From contig CAAEBM010000057.1 of assembly GCA_900754115.1 (NCBI GenBank), positions 73,000 through 136,999 of the forward strand: DNA of 64,000 nt. The letters are read 5' to 3'. The notes beneath the pieces are model-generated. The model saw only the letters and a program-made list of their open reading frames with translations. It did not search any database and was not told the origin of the DNA. Positions within the stretch are counted from its first letter, which is position 1, and the number at the start of each line of letters is the position of its first letter. Origin of the DNA: Bacilli bacterium (GTDB lineage: Bacteria; Bacillota_I; Bacilli_A; RFN20; CAG-631). Positions 1 through 59,411 of this stretch are shown in pieces. Position numbers and translations under genes: made by a program.

Positions 1-1175
1 TTTCGTGTTTTTGTTAAATCGATTTTAGAATCTACTAAGACTCTTAATCCATTAGAAGCTATAAACCCATAAAGAACGATAGAAATACCACCCATAACAC
101 AAGCAGGTATAGCAGAAATTAAAGCGATAAACACATTACTGAAGGATAAAAGAATAGCCAAGATTGCCGCAAGCCCTGTAACCCAAACTGAAGCGACTTT
201 AGTCATTCCTACTACTGATGTATTTTCCCCATACGTGGTATTTGCAGGGCCTCCAAATAAAGCAGCTACACTTGTTGCAATTCCATCTCCTAGTAATGTT
301 TTGTCTAATCCAGGATCTTCTAAATAATCTTGACCTGTAATTTTAGATAAAACGCTGTGGTCACCGATATGTTCACAAGCTGTGACAAAAGCTAAAGGAA
401 TAACAGGTAATGCGCCAACAAGATTTACTTTGTTAAATGTAATGGTTGTTCCTAACACATTATAAGTGGCATCTTTTAAGGATAAAAAATGGAACTCTGG
501 AATTTTAAACCATTGTGCTGGTGACTTAATAATGGATACAAAATTAGAAAAGTCAATTAATCCGAAAATGGCGGATAAAATAAAACCTCCAACGATGGCG
601 AGTAAAAAAGGAATAATTTTCATAAATTTTGTTCCTTTTAAAGCAAATAATGCAACCATTAATAAACAAGCAAGAGCAATCAAAATCATTTTCCATTGTT
701 GCACTTTACTAACCCCTTCAATAGAGCTAACTAAGCCCGCATTAGAAATGGCACTCGTACTTAACCCTAAACCAATAATCATAATCATTGGACCCACAAT
801 AATTGGTGGTAATACTTTCTTTATCCATGTTTTTCCAAAAAGACGAACAGCTAACGCAATTAAACAATAAATCACACCGACAAAAAACATTCCTGTAAAA
901 ACAGCTCCTAACCCACTGGTTTTCATTAAAGATGAAATGACAGGAATATAAGCAAAACTGCTTCCCAAATAGACAGGTACTTTCGCTTTCGTGCAGGCAA
1001 TGTAAATCAAGGTTCCAAGCCCCGAAGTAAACAAAGCAACAGAAATCGGAAGTCCAGTTAAAAGTGGTACTAAAATCGTTGCACCAAACATAGCAAAGAC
1101 ATGTTGAAAACTTAATAAAAACCACTTTAACTTACTTTTGGGTCTGTCTTTTGCGTTTAAAATCATTTTTTCCAT
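1..1175 (-). CDS. pyrP: uracil/xanthine permease (NCS2 family); C-terminal part runs off the left window edge
   Basis: Minus-strand ORF open to position 1. Translation MEKMILNAKDRPKSKLKWFLLSFQHVFAMFGATILVPLLTGL...KVPVYLGSSFAYIPV has the NCS2 uracil permease signature. RBS AGGAGGG lies upstream of the ATG (complement of 1173-1175). The gene is not in the ORF track because no stop falls in the window. Confidence 0.8.
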   Translation of the reverse strand, partial: MEKMILNAKDRPKSKLKWFLLSFQHVFAMFGATILVPLLTGLPISVALFTSGLGTLIYIACTKAKVPVYLGSSFAYIPVISSLMKTSGLGAVFTGMFFVGVIYCLIALAVRLFGKTWIKKVLPPIIVGPMIMIIGLGLSTSAISNAGLVSSIEGVSKVQQWKMILIALACLLMVALFALKGTKFMKIIPFLLAIVGGFILSAIFGLIDFSNFVSIIKSPAQWFKIPEFHFLSLKDATYNVLGTTITFNKVNLVGALPVIPLAFVTACEHIGDHSVLSKITGQDYLEDPGLDKTLLGDGIATSVAALFGGPANTTYGENTSVVGMTKVASVWVTGLAAILAILLSFSNVFIALISAIPACVMGGISIVLYGFIASNGLRVLVDSKIDLTKTR

Positions 1176-1205
1176 TCTTTTCCCTCCTCTTGAATCAAAT
1201 GATTT

Positions 1206-1239
1206 AAAAAAAAGACACTTTATCAAAGGATAAAGTGCC
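1206..1239 (-). terminator. intrinsic terminator inside the 5' leader of the permease gene (putative transcription attenuator)
   Basis: On the minus strand: GGCACUUUAUC-CUUU-GAUAAAGUGUC (11-bp stem with one G.U) followed by U8. It ends about 30 nt upstream of the permease start codon. Confidence 0.55.
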
Positions 1240-1504
1240 TTTTAATAGAAAAAGAAAAAAGAAAAAGAAGACAATCAGGTGTATAATTTTTTAATACAAT
1301 TTGATTTTTGTTCATTTTCCATTTCCCCTTTACTTTTTCTGCTATATTATATTTTAAAAAAAAATGAAATGAAAGGATTTTCTTTTATTTTTTTTTATGA
1401 TAAAATAAATATGGTTTTCTTTTTTTTACAAAAAAATAAAAAAGATAAAAACTTATTTTATTCATTAATAGAGTAAAGCATGGTGTAAGACCATGTTTTT
1501 TACA

Positions 1505-1548
1505 TCTCTTTTAAAAAAAAGAACTTGAAATATTTCATTCAAGTTCTT
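1505..1548. terminator. bidirectional rho-independent terminator
   Basis: Hairpin AAGAACTTGAA-atatttc-TTCAAGTTCTT flanked by an A-run and a T-run. It lies immediately downstream of the minus-strand lipoprotein gene, which ends at 1571. Confidence 0.6.
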
Positions 1549-1570
1549 AAAAGTACAATCAAAAGTTTTT

Positions 1571-3637
1571 TTATTTAAAATTACAATTGTTTACAATGGT
1601 TTGACCATCAACTGTTATAGATAAGACACAGAAAGCATAATATGTTTTTTCATTCCAGTTACAAGGAATGATATCAATACTTATTTCTTGACCATCATAA
1701 GGAGTTAAAAATTCATATTGTTTAGTAGCATCAGAGCAGTAAAGATTTAATTCTACATCACCAGCGGCATTTGTTATTTTAATTTGATTAGAATATGTAC
1801 CAAGAATTAATTTAACCTTTCCTGTAATAACATATGCATTGGTTGTGAGATCTTCTGTAATTGATAAATTTTTTAATTCTTCTACTGTTTTTGAAGAATC
1901 AAATGTTTCTTTTGAATATTCATGTTCTCCATATAAATTAGCTACTAAGGTTGCTTCATCCAAAGCTGATTGTCCAAGAATCCCTTTTTCTTCATTAGCT
2001 CTTACATGAGTTCTTGTCCCTTTCATAATAACCATATTGCCTAAACTTAATTTTTTAATTGTTTCAGAATCTGTACGAACTGCTAAAACACCAGTTTCAT
2101 CAATAAGATAAAAACCACTATTTTGGTTGGCTACAGAAGCAGCAACAACACCTTTAACAATCACTTCTTCATTGTCTTCAGCTTCAATTGCTTCTTTGAC
2201 TGTGACTGCTTGTTGTACATCAGGGCTAGATACATTAATTGTAATATCTTTACTATAAGTTGAAGTTGTACCATAATTTCCAGTAATTGTTACTTTTGCT
2301 GTACCTACATCTTTTGTGTGCATTACTGCGCTATCTTCTGTTGTATCAAAATAGATTACATCAGTATTATCAGATTGATAAGATAGTGTAGCATTTTCAA
2401 AACCTAAAAGAGTAGAAGAAACTTTAGTGACTAAAGATAAATTAGGATCTCCAGTGTAAGTATCTAAGAATTGATCCACTCCATAATAATCTACTACAAA
2501 TTGAGCAGTATCTTTTAAATCAAAAGTGTATCCTTCATCAATTACTTCAATTGGCATGAAACGGAAAAAGCATCCAGAATCAGTAGATTTTGCGTTGATT
2601 GCAGAGAGATAAACTGTACAAATTTTACCATCAAATTCATCTAAATAAGCAAAATCACTTCCATTACACATCGTATAAACATAAGAACCAGTTTCATCAT
2701 CTAAATCATTGATATAATAATTGACAAATCCTGTACCAGGAACTTTATTGACAACTGCATTTACTTTATAAATGTTTGTTGTAATATTTTCACTGATTGG
2801 TGTATCCACAATTGCTTTTACTGTTGTTTCTTGAATCCAAGATTTATCAAAATCTGTTTTTTGATTATCATTTTCAATTAAATAAGGATTTGAAATTTGA
2901 CAAGAACCAGGATATCCATACTTTGCTGCATTTGCTTTTTCGCTTTCTAAAACATAGTAAGTTTTTTCTCCAGCAATCGTTATAGTATTTCCTTCTTGTA
3001 CTTGACCAGCAACTTCACCATAAACATAAATGGATCCTGTATTATCTACTAAATAAAATCCATTAGGAATCATGCCATTAGCATAAGTAATTTTTGTGAC
3101 AACACCTGTTAATTTTACTTTTGTGCCTGCTGCATCATTTCTAGCAGTTGTAATATCTTTTGCTGTATAATCACCAATCTCTATATCGGGTTCATTGTGT
3201 TTAAATTCTTGAATCCAGCCAGAACCCATTTCAGGTTGATTTTTAAACATTTTTAAACTTCCGTATAAAACAACAAAATCTCCTTTTACTGGCTTGTCAT
3301 CTAATTCTGAGTAGCGTAATTCTCCATCTTTAGAATACGTTCTATAAATGTAAAGAGAATTCGTGCCATCAGTAATGGTCATCTCTCCATAAGTTGGGTT
3401 AGAAACCGTTACAATTTCTCCATAAACATAATACTTTTCAGATGTTCCTTCTTCCCCAGCTTCAGTTGCAATATTAATAGCTTCGGCAATGCTTGTACAT
3501 TTACTTGGATCTTCAATAGAACAGCCGCCGCCTGCAACAATAGAAGATGATGGGTTTTTGTCTTCTTTACAACCGACTAAACTAAACAAACATAAACTGG
3601 CAACAAACAAACTTAAATTTCGAAAATATTTTTTCAT
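1571..3637 (-). CDS. surface lipoprotein with repeated OB-fold-like modules and an Ig-like (Big_2-type) domain; function unknown
   Basis: 688-aa ORF with GGAGG RBS. Signal peptide plus lipobox: MKKYFRNLSLFVASLCLFSLVGC. Repeated motifs (KYYVYGEIVTV, NGFYLVDNTGSIYVYGEV, SGFYLIDETGVLAVRT) suggest OB-fold repeats. VTITGNYGTTSTYSKDITINV is Big_2-like. Confidence 0.6.
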   Translation of the reverse strand: MKKYFRNLSLFVASLCLFSLVGCKEDKNPSSSIVAGGGCSIEDPSKCTSIAEAINIATEAGEEGTSEKYYVYGEIVTVSNPTYGEMTITDGTNSLYIYRTYSKDGELRYSELDDKPVKGDFVVLYGSLKMFKNQPEMGSGWIQEFKHNEPDIEIGDYTAKDITTARNDAAGTKVKLTGVVTKITYANGMIPNGFYLVDNTGSIYVYGEVAGQVQEGNTITIAGEKTYYVLESEKANAAKYGYPGSCQISNPYLIENDNQKTDFDKSWIQETTVKAIVDTPISENITTNIYKVNAVVNKVPGTGFVNYYINDLDDETGSYVYTMCNGSDFAYLDEFDGKICTVYLSAINAKSTDSGCFFRFMPIEVIDEGYTFDLKDTAQFVVDYYGVDQFLDTYTGDPNLSLVTKVSSTLLGFENATLSYQSDNTDVIYFDTTEDSAVMHTKDVGTAKVTITGNYGTTSTYSKDITINVSSPDVQQAVTVKEAIEAEDNEEVIVKGVVAASVANQNSGFYLIDETGVLAVRTDSETIKKLSLGNMVIMKGTRTHVRANEEKGILGQSALDEATLVANLYGEHEYSKETFDSSKTVEELKNLSITEDLTTNAYVITGKVKLILGTYSNQIKITNAAGDVELNLYCSDATKQYEFLTPYDGQEISIDIIPCNWNEKTYYAFCVLSITVDGQTIVNNCNFK

Positions 3638-3699
3638 ATTTGTTTTCCTCCCATATCATTATAAAGAAGAAAATCTTTTTTGTAAATATAAGAAAATAA

Positions 3700-3725
3700 A
3701 AAAAGAGCAGATTACTCTTTTTTCA
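3700..3725. terminator. hairpin plus T-run overlapping the 3' end of the helicase gene
   Basis: AAAAAGAG-cagatta-CTCTTTTTT. This is a weak, short stem. Confidence 0.35.
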
Positions 3726-5927
3726 GGTTTTGAACTCTTTGAATCATCCCTTGTATATCTAACACTCCATAAGCAAATCTTTTTTTGATTAATTCAATAG
3801 GAACGAATTCATCATATTTTTCAAATAGAGGCACTTCTTTGGGATAGACAAGTTCAAAAGGATTGATTGGCTTTTGACTTTCTTCTAATAAAACCTCATA
3901 AAACTCTTGTATTGTCGCTTTCATTTGAAATTGAATAAAATAAGGTCTAGACACATTCATTTTCTTAAGTTTTAGTTTTGCTGCACATTTAATTTTTAAA
4001 AATCGTTCTAGAGCTAAAAAACTATAGGTTCCAAGCCATGGAAAAAGACAATACATTTCTCCTCCCAAACAAATTAAAGGTTGCTGAAATAAATTAGAAT
4101 GTAAAGCAATTTTTCTTCCTTCTTTTAAACGCTCTATCGCTTGCTCTTTTAAATAAGGATAAAGGGTATCTTCCTTTAAAATCTTTGCCATCTTTTCTAA
4201 TACTTTGGTATGAATGTCTCCAGGGCATAGACCAAAATAAGCGGGTACTTGTCCTTTTGCCTCTTCACAATAAATGACATGTTTTTGATAGTCAATTTCT
4301 TCAACAGTCCAAACTTTTCCTGCCAAAGCAATTTTATCTTTTAAAGGAGGTGGTTTAACAATCGAACCAATTTCTTGTGCATGGCAGCGAACAACATATT
4401 CTTCATTTTCTACAAAAACTGCATAAAATTTAAATGAACGAATGATTTTTTCTCCTGCAAGACCAATAATTAAGCCTCCTTCTTCTGTTTTTTGTAAATA
4501 ATCGATTTGAAGTAAATGATGCAATAATTGTTGATAATCTTGTTTTGTTATGGAGCAAAAGTAAGGTAAAGTTAAGACTTTTGCTGCTAGTTGTGTGGGT
4601 GTTAATTCTCCTTGAGAGGCTAAAATAGACATCGTTTGATGATAAAGTAAACTATAAGGATAGGGTGAAACTCGTAAAGGTTCAACCCATTTTTCTTCTA
4701 TATAAAGTTGAATTAAAGCGATTGCTTGCAATAGTTTCCATGGTATCGTTGCAGGAAGCATTTCTCTTGATGTTGGCATTTCTTCTCGAATGACAAACCA
4801 CATTTCTGGGATTTGGTTACGTCTTCCGGTTCGTCCCATTCGTTGTAAAAAAGAAGAAACCATCGCTGGAGCATCAATTTGAAAAGCACGTTCTAGCCTG
4901 CCAATGTCAATTCCTAATTCTAAGGTCGCCGTGGTGATGGTTGATTGTAATTGTTCTTCATCTTTCATTATCGTTTCTGCTGTTTCTCGATAAGATGCTG
5001 ATAAATTCCCATGATGGATTAAAAAACGATCGGGCTCATGATTTAATTCACAATAATGTCTTAAAGTGGAAGTGACCAATTCGCATTCTTCTCTAGAATT
5101 GGTAAAAACTAGACATTTTTTCCCTTTTGTATGTTCAAAAATATAGTTTAACCCTGGATCAGCATAGACAAGTAATTTTTCTTGTTGAGTCCGTTTTTCC
5201 TTTTTTAATGCAAGTGTTTCACTAGCATTTTGTACATAAAAATGTTGTAAAGATAAACGCCATTTTATCTTAGTTTGTGGAATTTGGGGAATCAATGTTT
5301 GTTTATCGGTTCCTAAAGCAAGCAATTCCCCAACCTCTTTTGGATTTCCTAAAGTGGCAGATAGCCCTATTCTTCTTGGATGAACATTGGCAATGCGACA
5401 AAGTCTTTGAATCAAACAAAGTGTTTGCCCACCTCGCTCATTTCTTAATAAAGAATGGACTTCATCAATAATAATAAATTGTAAGTCTGAAAACAAATGA
5501 GCAATCATATTGTGTTTATGTAAAAGTAATGATTCTAAAGATTCAGGTGTAATCTGTAAAATACCTGAAGGATATTTTAACATTCGCTGTTTATGAGAAT
5601 AAGAAACATCTCCATGCCAATGCCAAACAGGAATTTGAGCCCTATCACAAAGTGTAGTTAAACGTTCAAATTGATCATTAATTAATGCTTTTAAAGGGCC
5701 AATATAAATGGCGCCAATCGATTGAGGCATCTTTTGGTAAAACAGCGAAAGAATAGGAAAAAAAGCAGCTTCAGTTTTTCCACTAGCTGTCGAACCTAGT
5801 AATAATACATGTTCCTCTGTATTAAAAATAGCCTCTCCTGCAGCCACTTGAATGGCACGCAAAGATTCCCATTGATTTTGATATATAAAATCTTGGATAA
5901 ACGGAGCATATTTTTCAAAAATAGAAC
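3712..5927 (-). CDS. sngC: Lhr/BrxHI-like DEAH-box superfamily-2 helicase; third gene of a Shango-like (TerB - ATPase - helicase) defense operon
   Basis: Walker A LLLGSTASGKTEAAFFP, DEVH box IIIDEVHSL, and an SF2 C-terminal helicase region (QRMGRTGRR) plus a long C-terminal extension. The likely ATG is at 5927 with RBS AGGTGG; the ORF track started at a GTG at 5940. It is directly downstream of the ATPase gene. Confidence 0.65.
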
Positions 5928-5940
5928 TCATAAAAGCCAC

Positions 5941-7248
5941 CTAAACCTCAAATTCAGTAAATAATTCTTCTTCGTCTTTAAAAGAAGAAACAGATTCAAA
6001 TTCTTTTGAATTCAAAACTTCTTCAATGCTAAAAGTTGGATTTTGATAAAGAATATTTAATAATTCAATAAAATCACGAATGACTTCTCGAGGAGTAAGA
6101 TGCGTTTCCGCTCCCACTTTTCCATATTCAAGTTGCATAAAGGTTAAATAGCGATCTGGTGTTAAATTCAATGTATAATCAAACAAAACTGCATGAATTT
6201 CTGCTAATTTTTCAATTAAAACAAACATTTCTTCATAGGTTAAAGGATTTAAAGAAATGATTGGCGCAAACATATCTTGATAATTTGTTTGATTTAATCG
6301 ACCCTTACTTAAACGAGAGCGAAGTGCTTCATAACTGAATACACCTCTTTTTGTATCTTCAATACATTGAGGAGTTCCACACATGATAATTCCTAAATAC
6401 TTTGCCTTTCCTTGTAAAGTATCATTGTACATCGTCAAGATTTTTTCATAATTGTATTGGCGGGTAATACTATTGGGAATTTTATAAATATTGACTAACT
6501 CATCTATTAAAATCAGCAATCCTTGATACCCTGCTTTCTTTAAAAAGAAAGCAAATAACTTAATGTATTCATACCAATCTTCATCATTAATGAGAATATT
6601 AATGCCTAAATCTTCCTTCACTGCTGCTTTTGTAGTATATTCTCCACGAAACCATTGAACAACTTTTGTTTTTAAAGCCTCATCATCTAAAAGATAAGCA
6701 CGATAATAACACGTCAACAATTTAGCAAAATCAAAACCATGAACAAGTTCATTTAAAGAAGAAATGACTTCAAAAATCTTTTTTTCCACTAAATTAGAAA
6801 AAGAAGAAGTGGATGTTAACGTAGGATTTTCCATTTGTACTTGGGTTTGAACTTGATTAATCCATCGATCTAAAATTAAAGTGAGCGCCCCACCTTCAGG
6901 TTTTGTTTTAGTAGACATATTTTTTATCAATTCTTTATAAGTTGCAAGTCCTTGACCTTTTGTACCATGTAATCGCCTTTCTGGTGACAAATCTGCATCA
7001 ACAACGACAAAATTTCTATCCATTGCATAATTTCGAATCGTTTGTAGTAAAAAACTTTTTCCACTGCCATACTTTCCCATTATGAAGCGAAAAGTAGCGC
7101 CACCTTCTTCAATTAATGAAATATCGTGTAATAAGGCTTGAATTTCAATTTCGCGCCCCACTGTAATATAGGGCAAGCCAATTCGAGGAACCACTCCACT
7201 TTTTAATGAATTGATAATAATGGAGGCAATTCTTTTGGGTATTTTCAT
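5941..7248 (-). CDS. sngB: P-loop ATPase of the DUF2791 / BrxD-like family; second gene of the Shango-like operon
   Basis: 435-aa ORF with Walker A FIMGKYGSGKSFLLQT and Walker B-like LLILIDEL. Its start codon overlaps the stop of the upstream gene (ATGA at 7245-7248). The architecture matches the ATPase partner of Lhr-like helicases in Ter-associated/BREX type 2/Shango systems. Confidence 0.6.
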   Translation of the reverse strand: MKIPKRIASIIINSLKSGVVPRIGLPYITVGREIEIQALLHDISLIEEGGATFRFIMGKYGSGKSFLLQTIRNYAMDRNFVVVDADLSPERRLHGTKGQGLATYKELIKNMSTKTKPEGGALTLILDRWINQVQTQVQMENPTLTSTSSFSNLVEKKIFEVISSLNELVHGFDFAKLLTCYYRAYLLDDEALKTKVVQWFRGEYTTKAAVKEDLGINILINDEDWYEYIKLFAFFLKKAGYQGLLILIDELVNIYKIPNSITRQYNYEKILTMYNDTLQGKAKYLGIIMCGTPQCIEDTKRGVFSYEALRSRLSKGRLNQTNYQDMFAPIISLNPLTYEEMFVLIEKLAEIHAVLFDYTLNLTPDRYLTFMQLEYGKVGAETHLTPREVIRDFIELLNILYQNPTFSIEEVLNSKEFESVSSFKDEEELFTEFEV

Positions 7249-8690
7249 ATGGTAATCATTCCTTTCAATTCATCAAGATAATCTTCGATAATCGTTACAA
7301 CATCTGCGTCATTGATTTCAAGAACATTATCTTGAAAATGTTCAAAACATTTTTCATTGATTTGTTCAACTAGTAAAGAACACATTCCTTTTTTTTCCTT
7401 TACAAAAGTGTGATAATCTTGTTGCTTTAAAATTAAAGATAAAAACATCTTTTCATCTTGAGTGAAACTACCTTCTTCAACTATCGTGTTTTGTAAAATT
7501 GGTTCTTCTTCTAATTCTTCCTTTGTAACTAAACTTTGAAAAGTTTTTAAAGCATTTTGTCGAATTTGATTTAAAGCGCTTGGGCGAATCACAATGTTTG
7601 CTTTCTTTTTCATTTTTTCATATTGTTCAATGACTTGCTTTATTTTTTTTACCATTTCTAAAGGGATATGATACGTAAGATTTTTATTTTCTAACCCTTC
7701 TTGATTCTTTAACAATCCCTCGATAGTCAAACAAAAATAACCTAAATCCTTACTTTTTTTCGTTTCATATCCTTCTTTAAACCATTGATGATTTTGATAA
7801 AAATAAGTGGTAAGTTCATTGGCCACATAAGGTTCATTTTCTTTTTTTAAAGGGTAAAACAAAGCTTCTTGAAACAAATAAATTCTTTTTTGCTTTTTCT
7901 TTTTAAATAGTTTTTCAAAAAAAGAAATTTTTTTCTTTTCTTGATAATACTTTTTTAAAGTTTGATAAGACAACACCACAATTTGTTGCACTTTTTCAGG
8001 ATATAATTGATATATTTTGGAATTTTTTAAAGAATAAGTGGACATACAATCGATTGCTTCAAATTGTTGTTTTAACGAAGCATCACCAAAATATAAAATT
8101 TGTAAATTTTTTTCTAAAGGATCTTCTAAATCTTTTAATAAAAGAGGGTTTAAATGATAATAGATGACATAATCTTTAATCCAGTTTGTCAAAGGATTAA
8201 TGATTCTTTCATCTAGCAAACGATACACTTTTAAAAAATTTGTCAATTTTTCATAGCCATCCAAATTAGAATCAACTCCAATTTGGTTCATCAACTCATA
8301 TAAATAAACATAAACAAAAGAAAGTGACGTTTTTTCAATTTGTCCTTTTCTTGTTTTCGTTCTCCAACTAAAATATCCTCGTAATTGTTCATTACTCATC
8401 GCTTGATAAGATGGAAAATAACGAAAAAAAGTTCCATGATAGCAAAAATCATCTTCATATTTTTCCATCTGCTTTCCAAAAACATAAAAACGATACTCTT
8501 CTGATTGTTGTTTCAAGTCGGGGCGAAAAAATAATTCTTTTAAATCAGCAATTTCTTTAGGCAACCAATTGCTTGCTTGTCGAGCTGTCTTTAAAATCGG
8601 TTCGTCATGAAAAATCATGGAATCAAATTGATGACTATTTTTAATTTTATCTTGGTTGATTAATTGTTGTATCAATTCTTTTGTATCCAT
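7245..8690 (-). CDS. sngA: alpha-helical protein consistent with a TerB-N / TerB-C domain protein; first gene of the Shango-like operon
   Basis: 481-aa ORF with RBS AGAGAGG. The region LRGYFSWRTKTRKGQIEKTSLSFVYVYLYELMNQIG resembles the conserved TerB-N core. The C-terminus is acidic (EINDADVVTIIEDYLDELKG). The domain assignment is by eye only. The gene has its own upstream promoter region and a terminator behind the preceding gene. Confidence 0.45.
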   Translation of the reverse strand: MDTKELIQQLINQDKIKNSHQFDSMIFHDEPILKTARQASNWLPKEIADLKELFFRPDLKQQSEEYRFYVFGKQMEKYEDDFCYHGTFFRYFPSYQAMSNEQLRGYFSWRTKTRKGQIEKTSLSFVYVYLYELMNQIGVDSNLDGYEKLTNFLKVYRLLDERIINPLTNWIKDYVIYYHLNPLLLKDLEDPLEKNLQILYFGDASLKQQFEAIDCMSTYSLKNSKIYQLYPEKVQQIVVLSYQTLKKYYQEKKKISFFEKLFKKKKQKRIYLFQEALFYPLKKENEPYVANELTTYFYQNHQWFKEGYETKKSKDLGYFCLTIEGLLKNQEGLENKNLTYHIPLEMVKKIKQVIEQYEKMKKKANIVIRPSALNQIRQNALKTFQSLVTKEELEEEPILQNTIVEEGSFTQDEKMFLSLILKQQDYHTFVKEKKGMCSLLVEQINEKCFEHFQDNVLEINDADVVTIIEDYLDELKGMITI

Positions 8691-8747
8691 CTTTGAACCT
8701 CTCTTAAAGTTAGTTTTACTATATCATATTTTTACATCCATTTCCAT

Positions 8748-8771
8748 AAAAAAACAATGACAAAGTCATTG
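8748..8771 (-). terminator. rho-independent terminator downstream of ligD
   Basis: On the minus strand: CAATGAC-tttg-TCATTG followed by T7. Confidence 0.5.
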
Positions 8772-8783
8772 TTAAAAGTTAAA

Positions 8784-11141
8784 TTAACTAAGAGTTTGTG
8801 AGACTTTAAAAAATTGTTCCCATGGGTCTTTTTTTTGTATTTGTTTGATTGCATTAAAAAGATTAAATTGATTGGGTGTAACTTTATCTAATTCCTGATA
8901 AGAAATAGGCATGGATACACAACCATTTTTAATGCGAACGGAATAGGGGGCAACGCTAGTTGCTCCTTTAGTATTGCGTACCCAATCAATGTATATTTTA
9001 TTTTTTCTTTGACTTTTACGCATATTGCTCGTATAGCGTTCAGGCCATTTTTGTTCCATCAATTGCGCAATTTGATTTGCAAAGTCGCGAAACTTTTCCC
9101 ATTTTACTTTTGCAACAAAGGGAATAACGACATGATATCCTTTATTTCCACTTGTCTTTAAAAATGAAATTAGTGACAAGTCATCTAATATTTGTTTTAA
9201 ATCTTTTACTCCTTGTCGCACTTGGTTTAAACTTAGTTTTTCATCAGGATCTAAATCAAAAACCATGACATCTGGTTGATTAAATTGTTGAATTTTACTT
9301 CCCCAAGTGTGAAACTCAATAGTTCCCATTTGTGCTTCGGCAATGATTCCTTTTTTTTCTTGAATATAAAAATAGGTTTCTTTTTTATTTTGTTGATTAG
9401 TAATCGTTTTTATATGAATACCCGCCATTTTTTGAGTGGGATGTTTTTTAAAAAAGCATTGTTTTGTCCCTTGTGGACACCGCACAACTGATAAAAAACG
9501 ATTTTGAACATAAGGAAGCATATATTCAGCAACTTGGTTATAATATTGCACCAAATCAAATTTCGTTATTTTTTCTTTAGCAAATACGATTTTTTGAGGA
9601 TTGGTAATGACAATTCCTTCTATTTCATTTTCATTTTTTACTTCTTCTTGGACCACTTCTTTTACTTTTTTATCTTCTCGAAGCCCTTTAAAACTCGCTT
9701 GTCTTAATAAATTTTGGGCAGTCCATTCCGCAAATTGCACTTCAGCCAAAAAATGAGGTTTTAAATACACTGTCGTATTTTTACTTTTTTCTTCCTTGAC
9801 AAAAAAACTCTTATTTGATACATATTTTTTAAATTTTAATAATAATTCTTTTTGTACTTCTTGAGACATTCCTGTTCCCACTTTTCCCACATAATTCAAT
9901 TGATTCTTTTCATAAACTCCTAAAAGTAATGCTTTAATGGGACGGTCATTTTGACTAGATAGTGTATAGCCACCGATGACAAATTCTTGGCGTCGATAAC
10001 ATTTTAATTTAATCCAATCATCATTTCTACGCCCTTGATATATTGAATCGACTTTTTTTCCTATTATTCCTTCTAAATTTAATTTTTTTGCTTGGGAAAA
10101 TAAAGCTTTCCCTTGATCTAAAACGTGTTGGCTATACAACAAATTCGGATATCCTTCTTTCATGATTTGTTTTAAAATTTCTTTTCTTTCAAGCAAAGGT
10201 TTATCTCTTAAATCTTTTCCATCTAAAGCTAAAATGTCAAAAATCACATAAGTCAGCGAAAAATTTCCTTTTTGTTTAATTTTTTGTTGTAGTAATTGAA
10301 ATTGACTGACTCCCTTTTCATCTAATATTACCATTTCACCATCTAAAACCATGCTTCGATGTTGAGCAAGTTGTTTTAAAGAGGGTAAAACTTCTTTAAA
10401 AATAGTAGAATAATCTTGTTGATTTCGGGATAGTAATTTTACTTTATCTTGTTCTATAAAAGATAAAATGCGATAGCCATCATATTTGATTTCATAAAGC
10501 CATCCTTTTTCTTTTGGAATTGTTTTTTTTAATTCTGCAAGTTGAACTTGTGCTTGGTAAAAAGGATTTTTTTTATCTTCTTTTGCAATTTGTTGCATTG
10601 TTTTTTGACTAATGATACTGGTCTTAAAACGACTAATTCCTATCGTTTTTTTAGCATATTGATCTTTTTCTTTGATGAGTAGCCAATGTTTCTTTTCTTT
10701 TTGATTTAAAAGACGAATTAAAGTCCAATATCCCTTTAATCGTTTTCCAAATAATTGAAATTTTAATACGCCCTTTTTTAGTCCATCTTTTAAAGGGTGC
10801 TCACTTTCATAAACTCCTTTATCCCAAACCATAACGGTTCCTCCTCCGTATTGGTTTTGGGGAATGGTTCCTTCAAAATCAGCATACTCTAAAGGATGAT
10901 CTTCTACTTGTATCGCCAATCGTTTATCTAAAGGGTTAAAAGATGGCCCTTTTGGCACAGCAAAACTGAGCAACACTCCCTCTACTTCTAAACGAAAATC
11001 AAAGTGAAGATTGGTTGCATCATGCCATTGAACGACAAAAAGACAGGAATCTTGTTTCTTTTTTTTCACTTTTCCTTGGGGTTCACTTGTCTTTTTAAAA
11101 TCTCTTTTATTTTTGTATTGTTTTAATTTTTTTTCTTCCAT
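8784..11141 (-). CDS. ligD: multidomain ATP-dependent DNA ligase LigD (phosphoesterase - ligase - polymerase/primase order)
   Basis: N-terminal PE domain (FVVQWHDATNLHFDFRLEVEGVLLSFAVPKGPSFNP...EDHPLEYADFEG). Ligase motif I EIKYDGYRIL. C-terminal LigD Pol domain (NPQKIVFAKEKITKFDLVQYYNQVAEYMLPYVQNRFLSVVRCPQG...FFKKHP). Confidence 0.85.
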   Translation of the reverse strand: MEEKKLKQYKNKRDFKKTSEPQGKVKKKKQDSCLFVVQWHDATNLHFDFRLEVEGVLLSFAVPKGPSFNPLDKRLAIQVEDHPLEYADFEGTIPQNQYGGGTVMVWDKGVYESEHPLKDGLKKGVLKFQLFGKRLKGYWTLIRLLNQKEKKHWLLIKEKDQYAKKTIGISRFKTSIISQKTMQQIAKEDKKNPFYQAQVQLAELKKTIPKEKGWLYEIKYDGYRILSFIEQDKVKLLSRNQQDYSTIFKEVLPSLKQLAQHRSMVLDGEMVILDEKGVSQFQLLQQKIKQKGNFSLTYVIFDILALDGKDLRDKPLLERKEILKQIMKEGYPNLLYSQHVLDQGKALFSQAKKLNLEGIIGKKVDSIYQGRRNDDWIKLKCYRRQEFVIGGYTLSSQNDRPIKALLLGVYEKNQLNYVGKVGTGMSQEVQKELLLKFKKYVSNKSFFVKEEKSKNTTVYLKPHFLAEVQFAEWTAQNLLRQASFKGLREDKKVKEVVQEEVKNENEIEGIVITNPQKIVFAKEKITKFDLVQYYNQVAEYMLPYVQNRFLSVVRCPQGTKQCFFKKHPTQKMAGIHIKTITNQQNKKETYFYIQEKKGIIAEAQMGTIEFHTWGSKIQQFNQPDVMVFDLDPDEKLSLNQVRQGVKDLKQILDDLSLISFLKTSGNKGYHVVIPFVAKVKWEKFRDFANQIAQLMEQKWPERYTSNMRKSQRKNKIYIDWVRNTKGATSVAPYSVRIKNGCVSMPISYQELDKVTPNQFNLFNAIKQIQKKDPWEQFFKVSQTLS

Positions 11142-11243
11142 AAGACCTCTTTTATAGTTTACCCCTTGAATATCTTTTTATTCTTGCATTGTCTTTTTTT
11201 TAAGACAACGCTATAATAAAACTAGTTTTTGGAGGAAATACAG

Positions 11244-12236
11244 ATGAAAAAAAATTCCCCTCTTTTAGATTTAAAGACGACAGAAAAAGCGATTAAATTT
11301 GTCAAAGAAACCTTTGAACAACAATTTGCTAAACAATTAAATTTATTGCGTGTTTCTGCTCCTTTAATTCTTTTTAACCACACGGGTTTAAATGATGATT
11401 TAAATGGTGTAGAACAACCTATTGTTTTTGACATTTGTCAAAAAACTCATTCCGTAACAATCGTTCAATCATTAGCAAAATGGAAACGTTTTGCTTTAAA
11501 AAAATATCAATTTCATGTTCATCAAGGCTTATATACCGACATGAACGCTATTCGAAAAGATGAAACCTTAGATGCACTTCATTCCATTTACGTTGACCAA
11601 TGGGATTGGGAAAAAATTATCACACCACAAGAAAGAAATTTACCTTATTTAAAAAAAGTGGTAAATAAAATTTATCAAGCTCTTTTACAAACGCAAAAAA
11701 AAGTCAAGCAAATGTACCCTCAATTACAAACTTTCCTTCCACCCACACTGCATTTTATTACAACTCAAGAATTAGAAAACCATTATCCATCTTATACAGC
11801 AAAAGAAAGAGAACTTGCAATCTGTAAAGAATATCAAGCTGTTTTTTTAATGCAAATCGGTCATCCTTTAAATCATTCAAAAAAACCCCATGATAATCGA
11901 GCTCCCGATTATGATGATTGGAAATTAAATGGTGATTTATTGGTCTACTCTCCTCTTCTTGATTGTGTCATTGAACTATCTTCAATGGGAATCCGGGTAG
12001 ATAAAGAAACATTAATTCAACAATTAACAATGGCAAATCAAATGCAAAAATGCTCTCTTTTTTACCATCAACTATTGATTCAAAATCAACTGCCCTTTAC
12101 CATTGGTGGTGGAATTGGTCAATCGCGACTTTGTATGCTTTTATTAAACAAAAAACATATTGGAGAAGTACAAGTTTCTGTATGGCCTAAAACCATAATA
12201 GAACAATGTAAACAAGAAGGAATCGATTTGTTATAA
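11244..12236 (+). CDS. asnA: aspartate--ammonia ligase (asparagine synthetase A)
   Basis: SLAKWKR, HSIYVDQWDWEKII, SSMGIRVD, TIGGGIGQSRLCMLLL match AsnA. GGAGGA RBS lies 7 nt before the ATG at 11244; the ORF track began at an upstream TTG. Confidence 0.9.
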   Translation: MKKNSPLLDLKTTEKAIKFVKETFEQQFAKQLNLLRVSAPLILFNHTGLNDDLNGVEQPIVFDICQKTHSVTIVQSLAKWKRFALKKYQFHVHQGLYTDMNAIRKDETLDALHSIYVDQWDWEKIITPQERNLPYLKKVVNKIYQALLQTQKKVKQMYPQLQTFLPPTLHFITTQELENHYPSYTAKERELAICKEYQAVFLMQIGHPLNHSKKPHDNRAPDYDDWKLNGDLLVYSPLLDCVIELSSMGIRVDKETLIQQLTMANQMQKCSLFYHQLLIQNQLPFTIGGGIGQSRLCMLLLNKKHIGEVQVSVWPKTIIEQCKQEGIDLL

Positions 12237-12548
12237 AGTTCCATTTTGAAAAACTTGATTCATCAAATTAGGGTATTTTAAAATAAATTCTTGAGAAGTA
12301 AAACTTTGATTTTGATAATATAGTTTTGTCACTTTCATAAAGCCATTGTGAACTTTTACAATGATAAAGCCTGCATATAAACTTTGTATTCCACCATCAG
12401 GAAGATATTGCATCGTAACAGGACCCACATAAGGTTCATATTCTAAAAAATAAATCGGTTCATCAAAATACATGGCTTTTAAAACACGATAGGGAAAATA
12501 AATGATATCTTTTTGAAAATCAACGGCTTCAATTTTAGTGTTTTCCAT
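12231..12548 (-). CDS. hypothetical small protein (105 aa)
   Basis: Complete ORF convergent with asnA. No recognisable motif. Confidence 0.4.
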   Translation of the reverse strand: MENTKIEAVDFQKDIIYFPYRVLKAMYFDEPIYFLEYEPYVGPVTMQYLPDGGIQSLYAGFIIVKVHNGFMKVTKLYYQNQSFTSQEFILKYPNLMNQVFQNGTL

Positions 12549-30261: not shown

Positions 30262-32385
30262 ATGGATTATCAACACAGTTTAAACGAACAACAATATCAA
30301 GCCGTCACATCACAAGATCAATACTTGAGGATTATTGCTGGTGCTGGAAGTGGAAAGACCAGAGTAATCACTTTTCGTATTGCTTATTTAATTGAAAAAC
30401 TCCATTATTTTCCAAATCAAATTTTAGCCATTACCTTTACGAATAAAGCCGCAGAAGAAATTAAATTACGCGTTCAAAAAATGTTAAATAATGATAAGCT
30501 TAATTTACGAATAGCAACGTTCCATTCTTTTTGTGCGCGCGTTTTGCGTCAAGAAATCAAACTTTTAGATTATCCTAGCACTTTTACCATTTTAGATGAA
30601 GAAGATCAAAAAAAGATTTTAAAAAAAATATTGGATGAAATGAATTTAGATAGTAAAAATTATTCGATTCGTTCCTTAATTGATTACATTGACTTTAAAA
30701 AAAATCATTGGGAAACTCCTACAAATTGCTTGCAATCCTTAGAAAATCCTTTAGAAGAAAATAAAGCACTCATCTATCAAAGTTATGAAAAACAACTAGA
30801 AAAAATGTATTATCTTGATTTCAATGATTTAATTTTAAAAACCATCACGATTTTTCAAACATTCCCTGATATTTTAAAAAAGTGGCAATCTTATTTTAAG
30901 CACATTTTGGTCGACGAATTTCAAGATGTGGATGACAACCAATATTTACTTTTAAAATTATTAGCAGGAAAAGAATGTGGCATTACAGTGGTTGGGGATC
31001 CTGACCAAACAATTTACACGTGGCGTGGAGCAAATATCAAAATTATTTTAGATTTTGATAAAGATTTTTTAAACGTCAAAACAATTCCATTAGAAGAAAA
31101 TTATCGTTCTAGCGCTAACATTTTAAAAGTGGCCAATCGATTAATTAAAAACAATACTAATCGTTTAGAAAAAAATTTGTTTACCTCTTCCAATGATGGT
31201 GAAGAAATTCATTTTTATCATGCAAATAGTAGTATTGAGGAAGCGCAATATATTGCCGATAATATTTTGACTTTATATGATGGAAATCAAGTTTGTTTTA
31301 AAGATTTTGCTGTTTTATATCGTTCTAATAGTCTAACTGCAGATTTAGAAAAAGTAATGGTAGAAAGGGGAATTCCTTACCAAATTTATGGTTCTTTACG
31401 TTTCTATCAAAGAAAAGAAATTAAAGATTGTATTGCTTATTTAAGATTAGCGTTTAATTTTAATGATGAAACGGCTTTTGAACGTTGTATTGCTACTCCT
31501 CGTAGAGGAATTGGTGAAAAAACAATAGAACAATTAAATGCGTTAGCAAATACAGAAAATCTTTCTTCGCTTACTTGTATTCTTCATCATCCTACTGATT
31601 TATCACAATCTGCTCATTTGCCTGCAAATACCACTAAAAAGTTATATTCATTTGCCCAATCGATTGCAAAACTTCATGATGATATCTTATTAGAGCCAAA
31701 AAATGCAGACAATGTTTTTTATGACTATTTAAAAGATAATGGATATATTGATGAATTACTTGTAACCCAGCAAGATGACCGGTTAGATAATATCAAAGTC
31801 TTTATAGAACAACTCGGGCAATATCTGAAAAATGAAAATGTAAATATCCAAGAATTTATCCAAGAATTAGCTCTTTATTCTTCTCAAGACGATATGAAAA
31901 ATGGCGAACAAAAAGATTTTGTTTCTTTAATGACCATTCACACTTCAAAAGGATTAGAGTTTGACAATGTCTTTATTTTTGGTTTAATTGATGGCATCTT
32001 TCCCTCTTCACGAGCGATTATGGAAAAAGTTGATGGACTAGAAGAGGAACGTAGAATTTTTTATGTTGCCCTAACTCGTGCAAGAAAAAGATTGTTTTTA
32101 ACAGATAGTGGTGGGTATAATTATACAGGTGTAAAATATCCTTCTCGTTTTTTAAATGAAATTAAAGAAACAGCGAGAAAAACTAGTTTTAAAATTCAAA
32201 ATGATAGTGCTACTTCCTTTTCACCAACCAAAATTCGCAATGGAAATATTATCGAACACCAAATATTTGGTGAAGGAATTGTCATTTCTGAACAAAATGG
32301 CCTCATTGATGTCGTTTTTCATGATCCAAAAGTAGGAAGAAAAAAACTAGTAGCCAATTATCCTTTAATCACAATCAAACATTAA
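30262..32385 (+). CDS. pcrA: ATP-dependent DNA helicase PcrA (UvrD family)
   Basis: AGAGSGKTRVIT Walker A. UvrD-family motifs. Followed by ligA as in Bacillus. Confidence 0.9.
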   Translation: MDYQHSLNEQQYQAVTSQDQYLRIIAGAGSGKTRVITFRIAYLIEKLHYFPNQILAITFTNKAAEEIKLRVQKMLNNDKLNLRIATFHSFCARVLRQEIKLLDYPSTFTILDEEDQKKILKKILDEMNLDSKNYSIRSLIDYIDFKKNHWETPTNCLQSLENPLEENKALIYQSYEKQLEKMYYLDFNDLILKTITIFQTFPDILKKWQSYFKHILVDEFQDVDDNQYLLLKLLAGKECGITVVGDPDQTIYTWRGANIKIILDFDKDFLNVKTIPLEENYRSSANILKVANRLIKNNTNRLEKNLFTSSNDGEEIHFYHANSSIEEAQYIADNILTLYDGNQVCFKDFAVLYRSNSLTADLEKVMVERGIPYQIYGSLRFYQRKEIKDCIAYLRLAFNFNDETAFERCIATPRRGIGEKTIEQLNALANTENLSSLTCILHHPTDLSQSAHLPANTTKKLYSFAQSIAKLHDDILLEPKNADNVFYDYLKDNGYIDELLVTQQDDRLDNIKVFIEQLGQYLKNENVNIQEFIQELALYSSQDDMKNGEQKDFVSLMTIHTSKGLEFDNVFIFGLIDGIFPSSRAIMEKVDGLEEERRIFYVALTRARKRLFLTDSGGYNYTGVKYPSRFLNEIKETARKTSFKIQNDSATSFSPTKIRNGNIIEHQIFGEGIVISEQNGLIDVVFHDPKVGRKKLVANYPLITIKH

Positions 32386-34431: not shown

Positions 34432-34466
34432 TAAAAAAAAACTTCATTTTAAAGTGAAGTTTTTTA
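34432..34466. terminator. bidirectional terminator between ligA and hflX
   Basis: AAAAAAAAACTTCATTTTAAAGTGAAGTTTTTT. Confidence 0.55.
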
Positions 34467-35715
34467 ATTTTTATGGTCTAGCCAAACGTGATCTAAATAT
34501 TTTTTATAATCTTTGATACTACATTCTAGTTCAATTAAGATTCCTGTTTCTGAATATTCTTTTTTTAAAATATGAGCATGTTCATTAAGATAAGATAAAA
34601 GACTGCCCTCTTTATAAGTAAAAAACATTTTACATTTTAAATAATCTTTAAATAATTCTTTTTTCATGTGTTGGATTAAAACATTCATGTTAATGCGATT
34701 TTTAGCGGATATGAAGACATGATTTTCTTTTGTTTCCAAGGTTTCAAACCCTAATCGTTCGGCTTTATTATAAACATAAATCATAGGAATTTTAGGATTG
34801 ACACCAATATCTAATAAAGTTTGATTAGTCACCATCATTTGTCTTAAAAACATCGGATTAGAAAAATCTAATACATGCAAAATCAAATCTGCATGCAATA
34901 CTTCTTCTAAAGTAGAACGAAATGCTTTTACTAATCCCACTGGAAGTTTAGAGATAAATCCTACCGTATCACATAGTAAAAATTCTTTATTATCTTCTAA
35001 TTTTATGTGACGAATAGACGTATCTAAAGTAGCAAAAAGCATATCTTTTTCCATGACATATTTTTTTTCATTTTTTTGGTATCGTTCTAAAAACGCATTC
35101 ATTAAAGTCGATTTCCCTGCATTGGTATAGCCAACAATAGCAACTAAAGGAAGCGCATTTTTTTGACGATTTTGTCTTTGAGTCTGCCGATTCTTTTCTA
35201 ATTCTATTAAATCTTTATTTAATTGTGCAATTTTTAATGAGTCGCTTGTTTAATTCAAGTTGCTTTTCGCCACTTCCTCTCGTTTTAGCACTTCCACCTG
35301 TTTGTTGTTCATAATTGGCATCTTGTAAAACTAATCGAGGAAGTAAATAAGAAAGGCGTGCAACTTCTACTTGTAATTTCGCTTCTTTTGTTTTTGCTCT
35401 TTTCGCAAAAATATTTAAAATTAATTGCGTGCGATCTAAAACTGCACATTGCAATTCATCTTCTAAATTTTTTTGTTGCAAAGGGGTTAAATCATTATTG
35501 AATATAATCCCATCACTTTGATGTTCTGCAATCATCGACTTTAAAATGGGTAATTTCCCACTTCCCATATAATATTTTTTATTAATCGATTTTAAATTTT
35601 GTGTTAAAGTTCCCACTACTTGATAATGACAAGCACTAGCTAATCCTTTCAATTCAATAAAGGATTCTTCAAAATCTTCTTCTTGAATATCAATACCCAC
35701 TAAAATGACTTTCAT
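34464..35715 (-). pseudogene. hflX: GTPase HflX interrupted by a frameshift (N-terminal domain ORF 35215-35715 plus GTPase domain ORF 34464-35102 and its open upstream extension)
   Basis: The upstream ORF carries the HflX N-domain (KLQVEVARLSYLLPRL...GGSAKTRGSGEKQLELNKRLIK). The downstream frame continues with IAQLNKDLIELEKNRQTQRQNRQKNALPLVAIVGYTNAGKSTLMNAF..DTVGF..NKAE. The frames switch in a T5/A5 homopolymer at 35231-35235. Confidence 0.7.
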
Positions 35716-56528: not shown

Positions 56529-57215
56529 TTATATAGAATAATAGGTTGCCCATTTTCTTTTTATTTTAGATTTATCAATAACTTTAAATGATGCTCCCAG
56601 TATTCCAAATAAATAAACAGTCACTGCACATACTTTATTTTTATCATCTATGTCATTAACTACTTCCATTAATTCTTCATCATTTAGATGAATATGAGTT
56701 AATTCATGAAAATATTTCTTTTTTCGGTAATAAATAATTAATGTATATTCAACATATTCTTCAACAATACTTATCTTCATTGAACCAAGTAGCCAGTCAT
56801 ACCCATAGATGGTTTCTGTTAACGATCCTTTTGTAATTTTTTTAAAAATATTTTGTAATTTTCTAGTTCGATCTCGATACATAAAAAACTGCTTTGGTTT
56901 GCCATTTCCATCTTTATTTATGCATACAAATGTCCATTCCCATTTTTTATTTACTACAACAAAATTTTGTATAGACATTTCATTTTCAAAAAAAGAAAAA
57001 TTTGCATCATAAGATTTTGTTTCTTGGTCTTTGTCTAGACAAAGACATATTGCATTCTGTTGATTTACTTTTTTAAATTCGTTTATGGCATCTTCATTGA
57101 CATAATAATCTAATTCATTTTTAGTCAAAAATAAATCTTCCAAAGAAAAATTATTTATTTTATTCATACAAAAAAACGTTTTTAGCCATTTTTTTTCAAA
57201 ATCTTTTTTATTCAT
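56529..57215 (-). CDS. hypothetical cytoplasmic protein (228 aa)
   Basis: Complete ORF in an AT-rich accessory region. No recognisable motif. Confidence 0.4.
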   Translation of the reverse strand: MNKKDFEKKWLKTFFCMNKINNFSLEDLFLTKNELDYYVNEDAINEFKKVNQQNAICLCLDKDQETKSYDANFSFFENEMSIQNFVVVNKKWEWTFVCINKDGNGKPKQFFMYRDRTRKLQNIFKKITKGSLTETIYGYDWLLGSMKISIVEEYVEYTLIIYYRKKKYFHELTHIHLNDEELMEVVNDIDDKNKVCAVTVYLFGILGASFKVIDKSKIKRKWATYYSI

Positions 57216-57260
57216 AAAACGCTCCTTTTTAAAGAATGATAATTATTAAATGATGAAACT

Positions 57261-58595
57261 TTACACTCTATAAAATTCGGAAACCAATAGTATATTTTCT
57301 TTAATCTTATATGCTAAACACAAATAATTTGTTTTACTAGTATATTTTAAATCAAAAAAATGATTGGTATCCAAATTATAGATTGTATAATAATCGAATT
57401 TTTTTGATTCATTACTAAAAGTTATAGGAATAAAATCTTTTTCTTGATTGCTCAAAGTTGGTTTAAAATTAGAAACATCAATCAATCTATCATTATTGAA
57501 ATAAATAATGCTTTCAGATTTTAATGCATTATGATATAAAACTGTCGTTTTTTGTTCATATTCTTTTTGAATAATTGTTGCTTCACTAGGGATATCAATT
57601 TGAATTTTTTGTTCGATAAAATCAATATAAGTTGCATTGGTATTATATTCATCTGCTAAAAAAAAGCTAAAACTTCCATAAATCAATAATGCGATGGTAA
57701 AGATACTTCCCACAATGATATTGCTTTTTACTTTATATTTTTCTATATTTTTTATTCCATAAATTATTGCTGCTAAAGGGATAGGGATAAAAAGGTATAA
57801 AATCCATAAGTTTTTAGTCATATAGTAAGATATTTCAAGATTGTATTGATAACGAACATTTACAATTGTTCCAATAATGATGATAGATAAGCAAATAGAT
57901 AAAATGGAAAGCACATTCAATAATACGGTCCATCGTCCCTTTTGACTAGAATAATTAGTCGTTTCCATTAAAAAATTAAAACCTTCAAGTGCAGTATTAT
58001 TTTTTATTGATTCACAAATCTTTTTAACTAAAGGAATGGATGTTTTTTCGTACACTTCTTCATCAAAAGTTTGATTTTGAATCATATTGAAAATCTTATT
58101 TGCCATGTATTGTTGTTTTTTATAAATGGAAAGTTTTAAATTTTGTAATTTATGAAGAAAGAAGATTGCTTGTTGAAGATCATGGTTAGCAATTGCAAAT
58201 AAAAACCGATAATAATATAATGTTTTAACTTTTTTTAGACCTTTGTTTTCATTCATTAAAACTATTGCTTTTTCTTCTTGTGATGAAATCATATAAATCA
58301 AGATGAGTCGCTGAATATTAAAATAATATTCTTGCAAACATAAACTATTTTGCAAAGCATGATTGTAATAAACCTCTAAATCATCATATTTCTTTTCATC
58401 AAAGAGTGGTTTTGCTTTTTTAGATACTATTTCGCATTTAATTAAATAATACAAGATAAAAAATAAAGTTAATGAAAAAATTCCGATGATAAAAATATAT
58501 ATGTTTGTAAAGACAATTGCTAAAATACTTAATATAACCAAAAGTATTAGATAAATCATATTTAATAATTTATTTTTCATTTTTTTACATCCCAT
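57261..58595 (-). CDS. hypothetical polytopic membrane protein (444 aa)
   Basis: Two N-terminal TM helices, internal TM helices and soluble regions. No recognisable motif. Confidence 0.4.
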   Translation of the reverse strand: MGCKKMKNKLLNMIYLILLVILSILAIVFTNIYIFIIGIFSLTLFFILYYLIKCEIVSKKAKPLFDEKKYDDLEVYYNHALQNSLCLQEYYFNIQRLILIYMISSQEEKAIVLMNENKGLKKVKTLYYYRFLFAIANHDLQQAIFFLHKLQNLKLSIYKKQQYMANKIFNMIQNQTFDEEVYEKTSIPLVKKICESIKNNTALEGFNFLMETTNYSSQKGRWTVLLNVLSILSICLSIIIIGTIVNVRYQYNLEISYYMTKNLWILYLFIPIPLAAIIYGIKNIEKYKVKSNIIVGSIFTIALLIYGSFSFFLADEYNTNATYIDFIEQKIQIDIPSEATIIQKEYEQKTTVLYHNALKSESIIYFNNDRLIDVSNFKPTLSNQEKDFIPITFSNESKKFDYYTIYNLDTNHFFDLKYTSKTNYLCLAYKIKENILLVSEFYRV

Positions 58596-58665
58596 TTCTC
58601 AATATATATACCATTTTTATGGAAGTTTTTCAAGATTTTGAAATTATCACAAGTTTAATAAAGAA

Positions 58666-59145
58666 TTAATTTTCCTTTAAATATAAATATGTATAAATTT
58701 CAGGTTCTACATTTGTAATATGAACACTACAATAATCGCCTACGTCAGCCCATTCTTCTCTTCCAGTTGTAAATGGCTTTAGCCAAGTGCCATTTTCATC
58801 TTTATATGCAATCAGTGTTCCCGTTGCTCCATTGAATGCATCTTTAAAATTTATAAAATCAAAAGTATATTTATTAGAATCTTTATCAATGACATAAAAT
58901 TCCAAACTATAAAATTTATCAGCAACTAAATCATGTATAACATTTTTACCATTGGAACTTTTAAAAGAATCTTTTGTTATTTCTGTAATGTTTAAAAAAC
59001 AGGATTGTGTATTATCGTAATCATTATATCCTGTGAATAAGCCCGGAACAAAATAATTGATTCGTTTGCTGAGAGAAGTGAAATGGCAAGAACATAATAA
59101 TAAAATTAATGGAAATAAACTAGCTAGCCTAATTTTTCTATTCAT
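58666..59145 (-). CDS. hypothetical lipoprotein (159 aa)
   Basis: MNRKIRLASLFPLILLLCSC lipobox. Confidence 0.45.
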   Translation of the reverse strand: MNRKIRLASLFPLILLLCSCHFTSLSKRINYFVPGLFTGYNDYDNTQSCFLNITEITKDSFKSSNGKNVIHDLVADKFYSLEFYVIDKDSNKYTFDFINFKDAFNGATGTLIAYKDENGTWLKPFTTGREEWADVGDYCSVHITNVEPEIYTYLYLKEN

Positions 59146-59368: not shown

Positions 59369-59411
59369 GGTAAGCTTACAATATGAGTGTAAACTTACCT
59401 AATTTTATTTT
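59369..59411. repeat. hairpin element copy 1 (GGTAAGCTTAC...GTAAACTTACC plus T-run)
   Basis: Imperfect inverted repeat carrying the same single mismatch as copy 2. T-rich 3' side. Confidence 0.5.

Follow-up and report, generated by a model that had tools for sequence, protein, structure and literature searches.

Shango is an anti-phage defence system encoded by three genes, and its activity has been validated in Pseudomonas aeruginosa and Escherichia coli (PMC10250203; bioRxiv 10.1101/2022.05.11.491447), with a modest level of protection amounting to 10- to 100-fold (PMC10250203). In the described systems (Millman et al. 2022; Johnson et al. 2023), such as that encoded by PA14_RS11735-45 of P. 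aeruginosa PA14, a TerB-like protein possessing TerB_N and TerB_C domains (SngA) is followed by an AAA+ ATPase of the DUF2791/PF10923 family (SngB) and a DEAD/DEAH helicase (SngC) (PMC10250203). The literature searched holds no published mechanism for Shango, and the sole idea on its action is a TerB-related "membrane surveillance" (bioRxiv 10.1101/2022.05.11.491447). A related pair, BrxD-BrxHI of type 2 bacteriophage exclusion (BREX; Pgl), consists of a homologous ORC/Cdc6-type AAA+ ATPase and a homologous Lhr-CTD-type superfamily 2 (SF2) helicase, the genes of which are tightly linked as they are in Shango, and a loader-like role has been proposed for this dyad (PMC12839542). Here, a three-gene operon on the minus strand at positions 3712-8690 of a 64-kb stretch of contig CAAEBM010000057.1 (hereafter the window, meaning the whole stretch of DNA that was analysed) is compared with these systems. 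Its host is an uncultured low-GC gut member of the Bacillota, whereas the validated systems are from Proteobacteria. The comparison supports the trio as a complete copy of Shango and not a new kind of system, and by analogy with the validated systems its function in this host would be anti-phage.

The trio shows the TerB-like/ATPase/helicase order of the PA14 system, and the adjacency, co-direction and A-B-C order required of Shango are all found at 3712-8690; all three sng genes are mandatory in the Shango rules of PADLOC and DefenseFinder. Against the PADLOC models, SngA matches over residues 55-479 to model positions 71-527 of 528 (2.7e-57, 194 bits), SngB over nearly its full length (2.4e-184, 611 bits) and SngC over model positions 3-718 of 720 (1.8e-264, 878 bits), the SngA match being much weaker than the other two. 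In Pfam, TerB_N (2e-27) and TerB_C (1.8e-13) are found in SngA, PF10923 (BrxC_BrxD, formerly DUF2791) over positions 1-413 of 414 in SngB (6.9e-165), and DEAD and Helicase_C in SngC. The original prediction, made from raw sequence alone, had named the trio Shango (sngABC) and described its first two products as a TerB-N/TerB-C protein and a P-loop ATPase of the BrxD/DUF2791 kind; these profile searches on the three proteins returned the expected families and confirm the call, and neither of the findings that the prediction had named as refuting it was obtained. The call thus puts a complete Shango system into an uncultured lineage of Bacillota from the human gut. The motifs quoted at that time, YFSWR and VYVYLYE in SngA, GKYGSGKSF in SngB and DEVH in SngC, are all present.

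The homology of SngB and SngC to BrxD and BrxHI raises the possibility that the operon is a remnant of type 2 BREX from which PglX, PglZ, BrxC and PglW are missing. The PADLOC models for BrxD (165 bits, 5.7e-49) and BrxHI (409 bits, 8.5e-123) do detect the two proteins, and the pair is tightly linked in BREX-2 as well (PMC12839542). However, the Shango models score far higher on the same proteins, the BREX scores being put at three to four times below the Shango scores, and the match of SngB to the NCBIfam BrxD equivalog NF033438 is 168.4 bits, below its cutoff of 350. In addition, the window pair is coupled to an upstream TerB_N/TerB_C gene, the trio recurs in about 30 other loci, and no PglX, PglZ, BrxC or PglW was found by Pfam in the window open reading frames (ORFs) scanned (the ORFs of the public gene calls were not rescanned), which agrees with the earlier argument that the lack of PglX and PglZ sets a BREX fragment aside. 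A BREX-2 remnant, which fails both the core-gene and the NF033438 membership tests, is therefore rejected, and its probability is negligible. The domain names TerB_N and TerB_C could likewise suggest a stress-response system of the tellurite-resistance (Ter) type, but SngA gave no match to the canonical TerB core even at E <= 10, and terZ, terA, terC, terD and terE were not found among the window ORFs scanned. With the Ter core components found neither in SngA nor in these ORFs, this reading is also rejected, and hardly any likelihood is left to it. The full-length Shango matches, which lie far above those of the BREX-2 models, and the lack of BREX or Ter genes in the scanned ORFs thus support the assignment to Shango.

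The three genes are tightly packed in the order sngA, sngB and sngC, and all lie on the minus strand. The 481-amino-acid (aa) SngA is encoded at 7245-8690 (-) from an ATG codon, and its stop codon shares an ATGA with the start codon of sngB at 7245-7248. The sngB gene at 5941-7248 (-) encodes, also from an ATG, a 435-aa ATPase of the ORC/Cdc6 type and ends with a TAG at 5941-5943, which is overlapped by an AGGTGG Shine-Dalgarno sequence that precedes the ATG at 5931 by 5 nt. Both the translational coupling of the co-directional trio through the ATGA overlap and the location of the helicase ribosome-binding site in the stop region of the ATPase gene had been foreseen and are borne out. The sngC gene is placed at 3712-5931 (-) and encodes a DEVH-box SF2 helicase of the Lhr/BrxHI type. 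Its start codon is most likely the ATG at 5931, which gives 739 aa, and not the alternative GTG at 5940, which gives 742 aa, because the 739-aa start is used in the public gene calls, an exact 739-aa SngC is on record, and sngC of the sister species follows sngB with the identical 9-nt spacing. The type of helicase named in the original prediction stands, whereas the length of 742 aa given there probably does not.

The operon is flanked by intrinsic terminators, as had been claimed. The terminator after sngC, placed at 3690-3725 (-), combines a 13-bp hairpin, which extends over the stop codon, with a U-run (about 3697-3725; folding energy -11.3 kcal/mol, z -5.2; none of 200 shuffles was equally stable), and the one after ligD, detected by terminator scan at 8753-8773 (-), is a 9-bp hairpin with a U-run (folding energy -8.5 kcal/mol, z -3.9) that separates ligD from the Shango transcription unit. 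Between the latter and the sngA start codon, a consensus scan found a promoter-like site at 8718-8746 (-), composed of TGGAAA, a 17-nt spacer and TATAGT with a TG before the -10 element (extended -10). Such sites are not enriched in this AT-rich region (40 observed versus 47 expected from shuffled sequence), and the sngA promoter is therefore plausible as a candidate only; of the promoter region earlier placed at 8691-8747, the presence of a promoter-like site is retained at this strength.

The catalytic motifs of SngB and SngC are intact. In SngB, the Walker A motif GKYGSGKS is located at G58-S65 (nt 7054-7077, -), with the lysine K64, and the Walker B motif at D249-E250 (-) was recognised by motif conservation; both are kept across 13 orthologues of SngB, the single deviation being a Ser-to-Ala substitution within the Walker A loop. 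The C-terminus of SngB (5944-5970, -) forms an acidic tail in which the motif F-x-E-F-E-[I/V] recurs among most of these aligned orthologues, and this tail could serve as a docking peptide for a partner protein. In SngC, the SF2 motifs I (S47-T53), II (D156-H159, DEVH), III (S191-T193, SAT) and VI (Q363-R370, QRMGRTGR) are invariant among 31 homologues. The nearest solved relatives of SngC are Lhr (5v9x) and MrfA (6znp), but its sequence match to Lhr, MrfA (YprA) and the TIGR04121 helicases is confined to the helicase core, and, unlike Lhr and MrfA, SngC invariably has SngA and SngB as partners. All three sng genes are under purifying selection, as judged from the ratio of nonsynonymous to synonymous substitution rates (dN/dS) against the sister species. 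Proteins from Clostridia metagenome-assembled genomes (MAGs) and a Victivallis sp. are 66-68% identical to SngC, with cognate SngA proteins of about 33% identity; this conservation across phyla suggests frequent horizontal transfer among gut bacteria together with strong constraint on the helicase.

SngA is the fastest-evolving component of the operon. Its dN/dS against the sister species is 0.37, about threefold higher than those of SngB (0.129) and SngC (0.116), and the divergence is distributed along the whole protein. In the roughly 30 metagenome loci in which SngB and SngC are 57-82% identical to those of the window, SngA is 25-37% identical, and a search at E <= 1e-10 among 1.84 billion representatives places about 1,400 clusters (50% identity) in its family. 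Such fast evolution suggests that SngA determines specificity or serves as the sensor, or else that phage antagonists target it. TerB_N (aa 59-253, nt 7932-8516, -) and TerB_C (aa 360-476, nt 7263-7613, -) are accessory domains, and given that the canonical TerB core is not matched, the earlier description of gene A as "TerB-like" holds for these domains and not for the core. PDB sequence searches with SngA and SngB found nothing, and a Foldseek search of the SngA model against PDB gave no match (best E 1.8); the predicted model is confident and has no whole-chain match among solved structures, with a weak likeness to winged-helix domains. The missing TerB core and the predicted fold with its weak winged-helix likeness weaken the idea of membrane surveillance by TerB for Shango and favour a role on nucleic acid. 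SngA shares its "TerB" label and defence context with BnzA of Bunzi and DinB of Dionysus, but these are described with TerB domains and membrane-associated partners, whereas SngA is without the TerB core and has partners that would act on DNA. For work on the mechanism of Shango, pointers are thus provided by the rapid divergence of SngA, its missing TerB core and its predicted fold.

The locus in relatives indicates how the operon was inherited. The sister species (L095 and L101) is fully syntenic through TopA, TrmFO, XerC, HSP20, GH127, asnA, ligD, sngABC and the lipoprotein gene, with identities of 86% for TrmFO, 73% for AsnA, 70% for LigD, 80% for SngB and 81% for SngC, and only 54% for SngA. 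The synonymous divergence (dS) against the sister species is about 1.0 for every gene, ligD, sngABC and the flanking housekeeping genes alike, and the cassette has thus co-diverged with its flanks. In a more distant relative, L099, the backbone is kept (TrmFO 82%, AsnA 61%, lipoprotein 59%) and asnA is separated from the lipoprotein gene by an oxidoreductase gene and a gene for an 833-aa membrane protein, with neither ligD nor Shango within 22 kb. From this synteny, the equal dS and the unrelated genes in L099, it is concluded that the operon and ligD entered the asnA-lipoprotein slot before the two sister species split and have been inherited vertically since, the acquisition being ancient. 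About 21 metagenome contigs from the human gut carry the exact SngB and LigD proteins, in each case in an identical context, and 11 independent contigs among them show 99.8-100% identity in the DNA of the operon; no same-species strain lacking the operon was seen among these contigs, in a look-up that is biased to identical alleles. A genome-contig scan anchored on AsnA gave matches of at most 59% identity and no close relative, and is uninformative for presence or absence. No GC break is found at the cassette in the composition profile or in per-gene GC; neither direct repeats of the att type nor terminal inverted repeats are present at 1000-12500, where only imperfect AT-rich chance matches occur; and no mobility gene other than the housekeeping xerC lies near the operon. 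The proposal of an inserted defence cassette and the accompanying suggestion of comparing the locus in close relatives are therefore answered in part: the content of the slot varies over deep evolutionary time, ligD and Shango being absent from it in L099, but the operon is present in the sister species, shows no same-species presence/absence variation in these contigs and is inherited vertically, with no mobility genes or repeats beside it. A defence operon may accordingly persist by vertical inheritance for a long time (dS about 1) while solitary and outside a defence island.

The gene directly upstream of sngA on the same strand is ligD (8784-11141, -), which encodes a 785-aa protein with phosphoesterase, ATP-dependent ligase and primase-polymerase domains in Pfam and is not a Shango component. 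This adjacency permits the explanation that LigD and SngABC form a housekeeping DNA-repair module, in which an Lhr-like helicase works with a Ku-independent ligase of non-homologous end joining, and that the trio is not anti-phage. Co-inheritance of the four genes in the sister species at equal dS, their joint absence from L099, the stable locus that is not strain-variable, and the lack of Ku among the window ORFs scanned are in line with it, as is the finding that the best NCBIfam match of SngC is the ligase-associated DEXH-box helicase TIGR04121. On the other side, that match is 199.4 bits against a cutoff of 850, compared with 878 bits for the SngC model, so that SngC as a member of the TIGR04121 equivalog is rejected; ligD is separated from sngA by a terminator and a separate promoter-like site, and in the sister species by an interposed 186-aa gene; no LigD lies within 10 kb of about 30 other Shango loci, the adjacency being lineage-specific; and the Shango family is experimentally anti-phage (PMC10250203; bioRxiv 10.1101/2022.05.11.491447). 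A repair module is thus considered unlikely. The same adjacency, equal dS and joint absence in L099 also allow the four genes to be seen as one block that was acquired together and cooperates, a lineage-specific "Shango plus end-joining" variant in which Ku-independent LigD could, for example, reseal or process host or phage ends generated or exposed by SngC. Cooperation of this kind is disfavoured by the terminator, by the gene inserted in the sister species and by the roughly 30 Shango loci without LigD, and only a slight probability is assigned to it. The interposed gene, located at 9310-9870 of L095, is predicted to encode a lipoprotein and has no counterpart in the window.

Beyond this lineage, about 30 independent metagenome loci retain the A-B-C order, and the identities of SngB and SngC given above hold in nearly all of them, an outlier being L122 with a SngC of 38% identity. 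Two loci are partial: L110 (647-4962) carries sngA-sngB without sngC, and L113 (243-2890) carries sngB without sngC. Unrelated genes, for a cytochrome c552 and an AAA_14/DUF4143 ATPase, follow in these loci, which may represent systems in decay, variants with two genes or chimeric assemblies. Relatives of SngB occur in 697 plasmid records, 542 of which are conjugative, and a complete A-B-C trio lies beside a relaxase gene and IS110 on a plasmid of Clostridium estertheticum. A SngB scan of IMG/VR viral contigs found no relative. Judged by this distribution, the Shango family as a whole is mobile, unlike the window copy. The abundance on plasmids could reflect competition between mobile elements, and with the modest anti-phage effect (PMC10250203) and the lack of a relative in the viral contigs, it lends itself to the explanation that the same machinery mainly excludes plasmids or other mobile DNA instead of phages. 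However, anti-phage activity is the only activity reported for Shango, and the literature searched contains no anti-plasmid data for it; a different main target is accordingly improbable.

For the anti-phage function of Shango, a possible mechanism can be proposed from the domain content of the three proteins. SngB, as an ORC/Cdc6-type AAA+ protein, probably oligomerises and serves SngC as an ATP-dependent loader or switch; a loader-like role has been suggested for the homologous pair BrxD-BrxHI (PMC12839542). SngC would act as an Lhr-like DNA helicase or translocase. Lhr itself translocates in the 3'-to-5' direction. SngA, a helical protein with the TerB_N module and possibly a winged-helix-like element, is probably a sensor or adaptor for a phage-specific cue and would direct or license SngBC on phage DNA. 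Since SngABC lack any detectable nuclease, methyltransferase or toxin domain, the interference is most likely non-nucleolytic, with the helicase disrupting intermediates of phage replication or recombination and no cleavage of DNA. Such interference would fit the 10- to 100-fold protection reported for the validated systems (PMC10250203).

The best explanation as a whole, considered very probable, is an intact, expressed-looking chromosomal Shango operon that was acquired long ago, has been inherited vertically since and acts through the proposed SngABC mechanism. Several points weigh against this explanation. The identity of the window SngA to the SngA proteins of other metagenome loci is low, the structure model of SngC is of low confidence (predicted local distance difference test score, 61), and the sngA promoter is a consensus match only. 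Furthermore, the roles assigned to SngA, SngB and SngC in the mechanism are entirely inferred. Compared with the validated systems, the Shango copy in the window is also solitary, lies outside a defence island or hotspot, is without mobile-element context and adjoins ligD, and its stable inheritance with no strain-level presence/absence variation is less typical of defence cassettes.

The remainder of the window is a housekeeping backbone, as had been stated for the surroundings of the operon: according to Pfam and the public gene calls, it encodes, among others, TopA, TrmFO, XerC, DprA, RNase HII, L19, TrmD, RimM, Ffh, FtsY, RNase III, PlsX, PcrA, LigA and oxaloacetate decarboxylase. The Ffh protein shares a 90%-identity cluster with its counterpart from Candidatus Caccosoma faecigallinarum, which places the host near this genus. 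When ten other window proteins were searched against PADLOC for further defence systems, only family-level GajB-type matches to the housekeeping PcrA (30262-32385) were obtained; Gabija at this position is rejected, since the GajB match belongs to the housekeeping pcrA-ligA pair and GajA is lacking. Downstream of Shango, the lipoprotein gene at 1571-3637 (-) encodes 688 aa with a weak OB-fold match only. Its family is very large, with over 2,300 homologues (E <= 1e-10) in MAGs of uncultured Bacilli, and occurs in at least three genomic contexts in relatives; the homologues in L098, L100, L133 and L134 lie in non-syntenic contexts with no Shango adjoining, and are uninformative on the slot. An HflX-type GTPase is divided between two ORFs at 34464-35102 (-) and 35215-35715 (-), separated by a gap of about 110 nt; GTP-bdg_N and GTP-bdg_M are encoded in one ORF and the MMR_HSR1 G domain in the other, and this split could stem from pseudogenisation, a frameshift or misassembly. 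At 56529-60077 (-), four consecutive ORFs (228, 444, 159 and 151 aa) without a Pfam match lie beside tRNA-Ser (60821-60910), the only tRNA gene of the window, and may constitute a small variable or mobile region. Finally, a 201-aa protein encoded at 62426-63031 (+) possesses a C-terminal barnase-type ribonuclease domain (PF00545).

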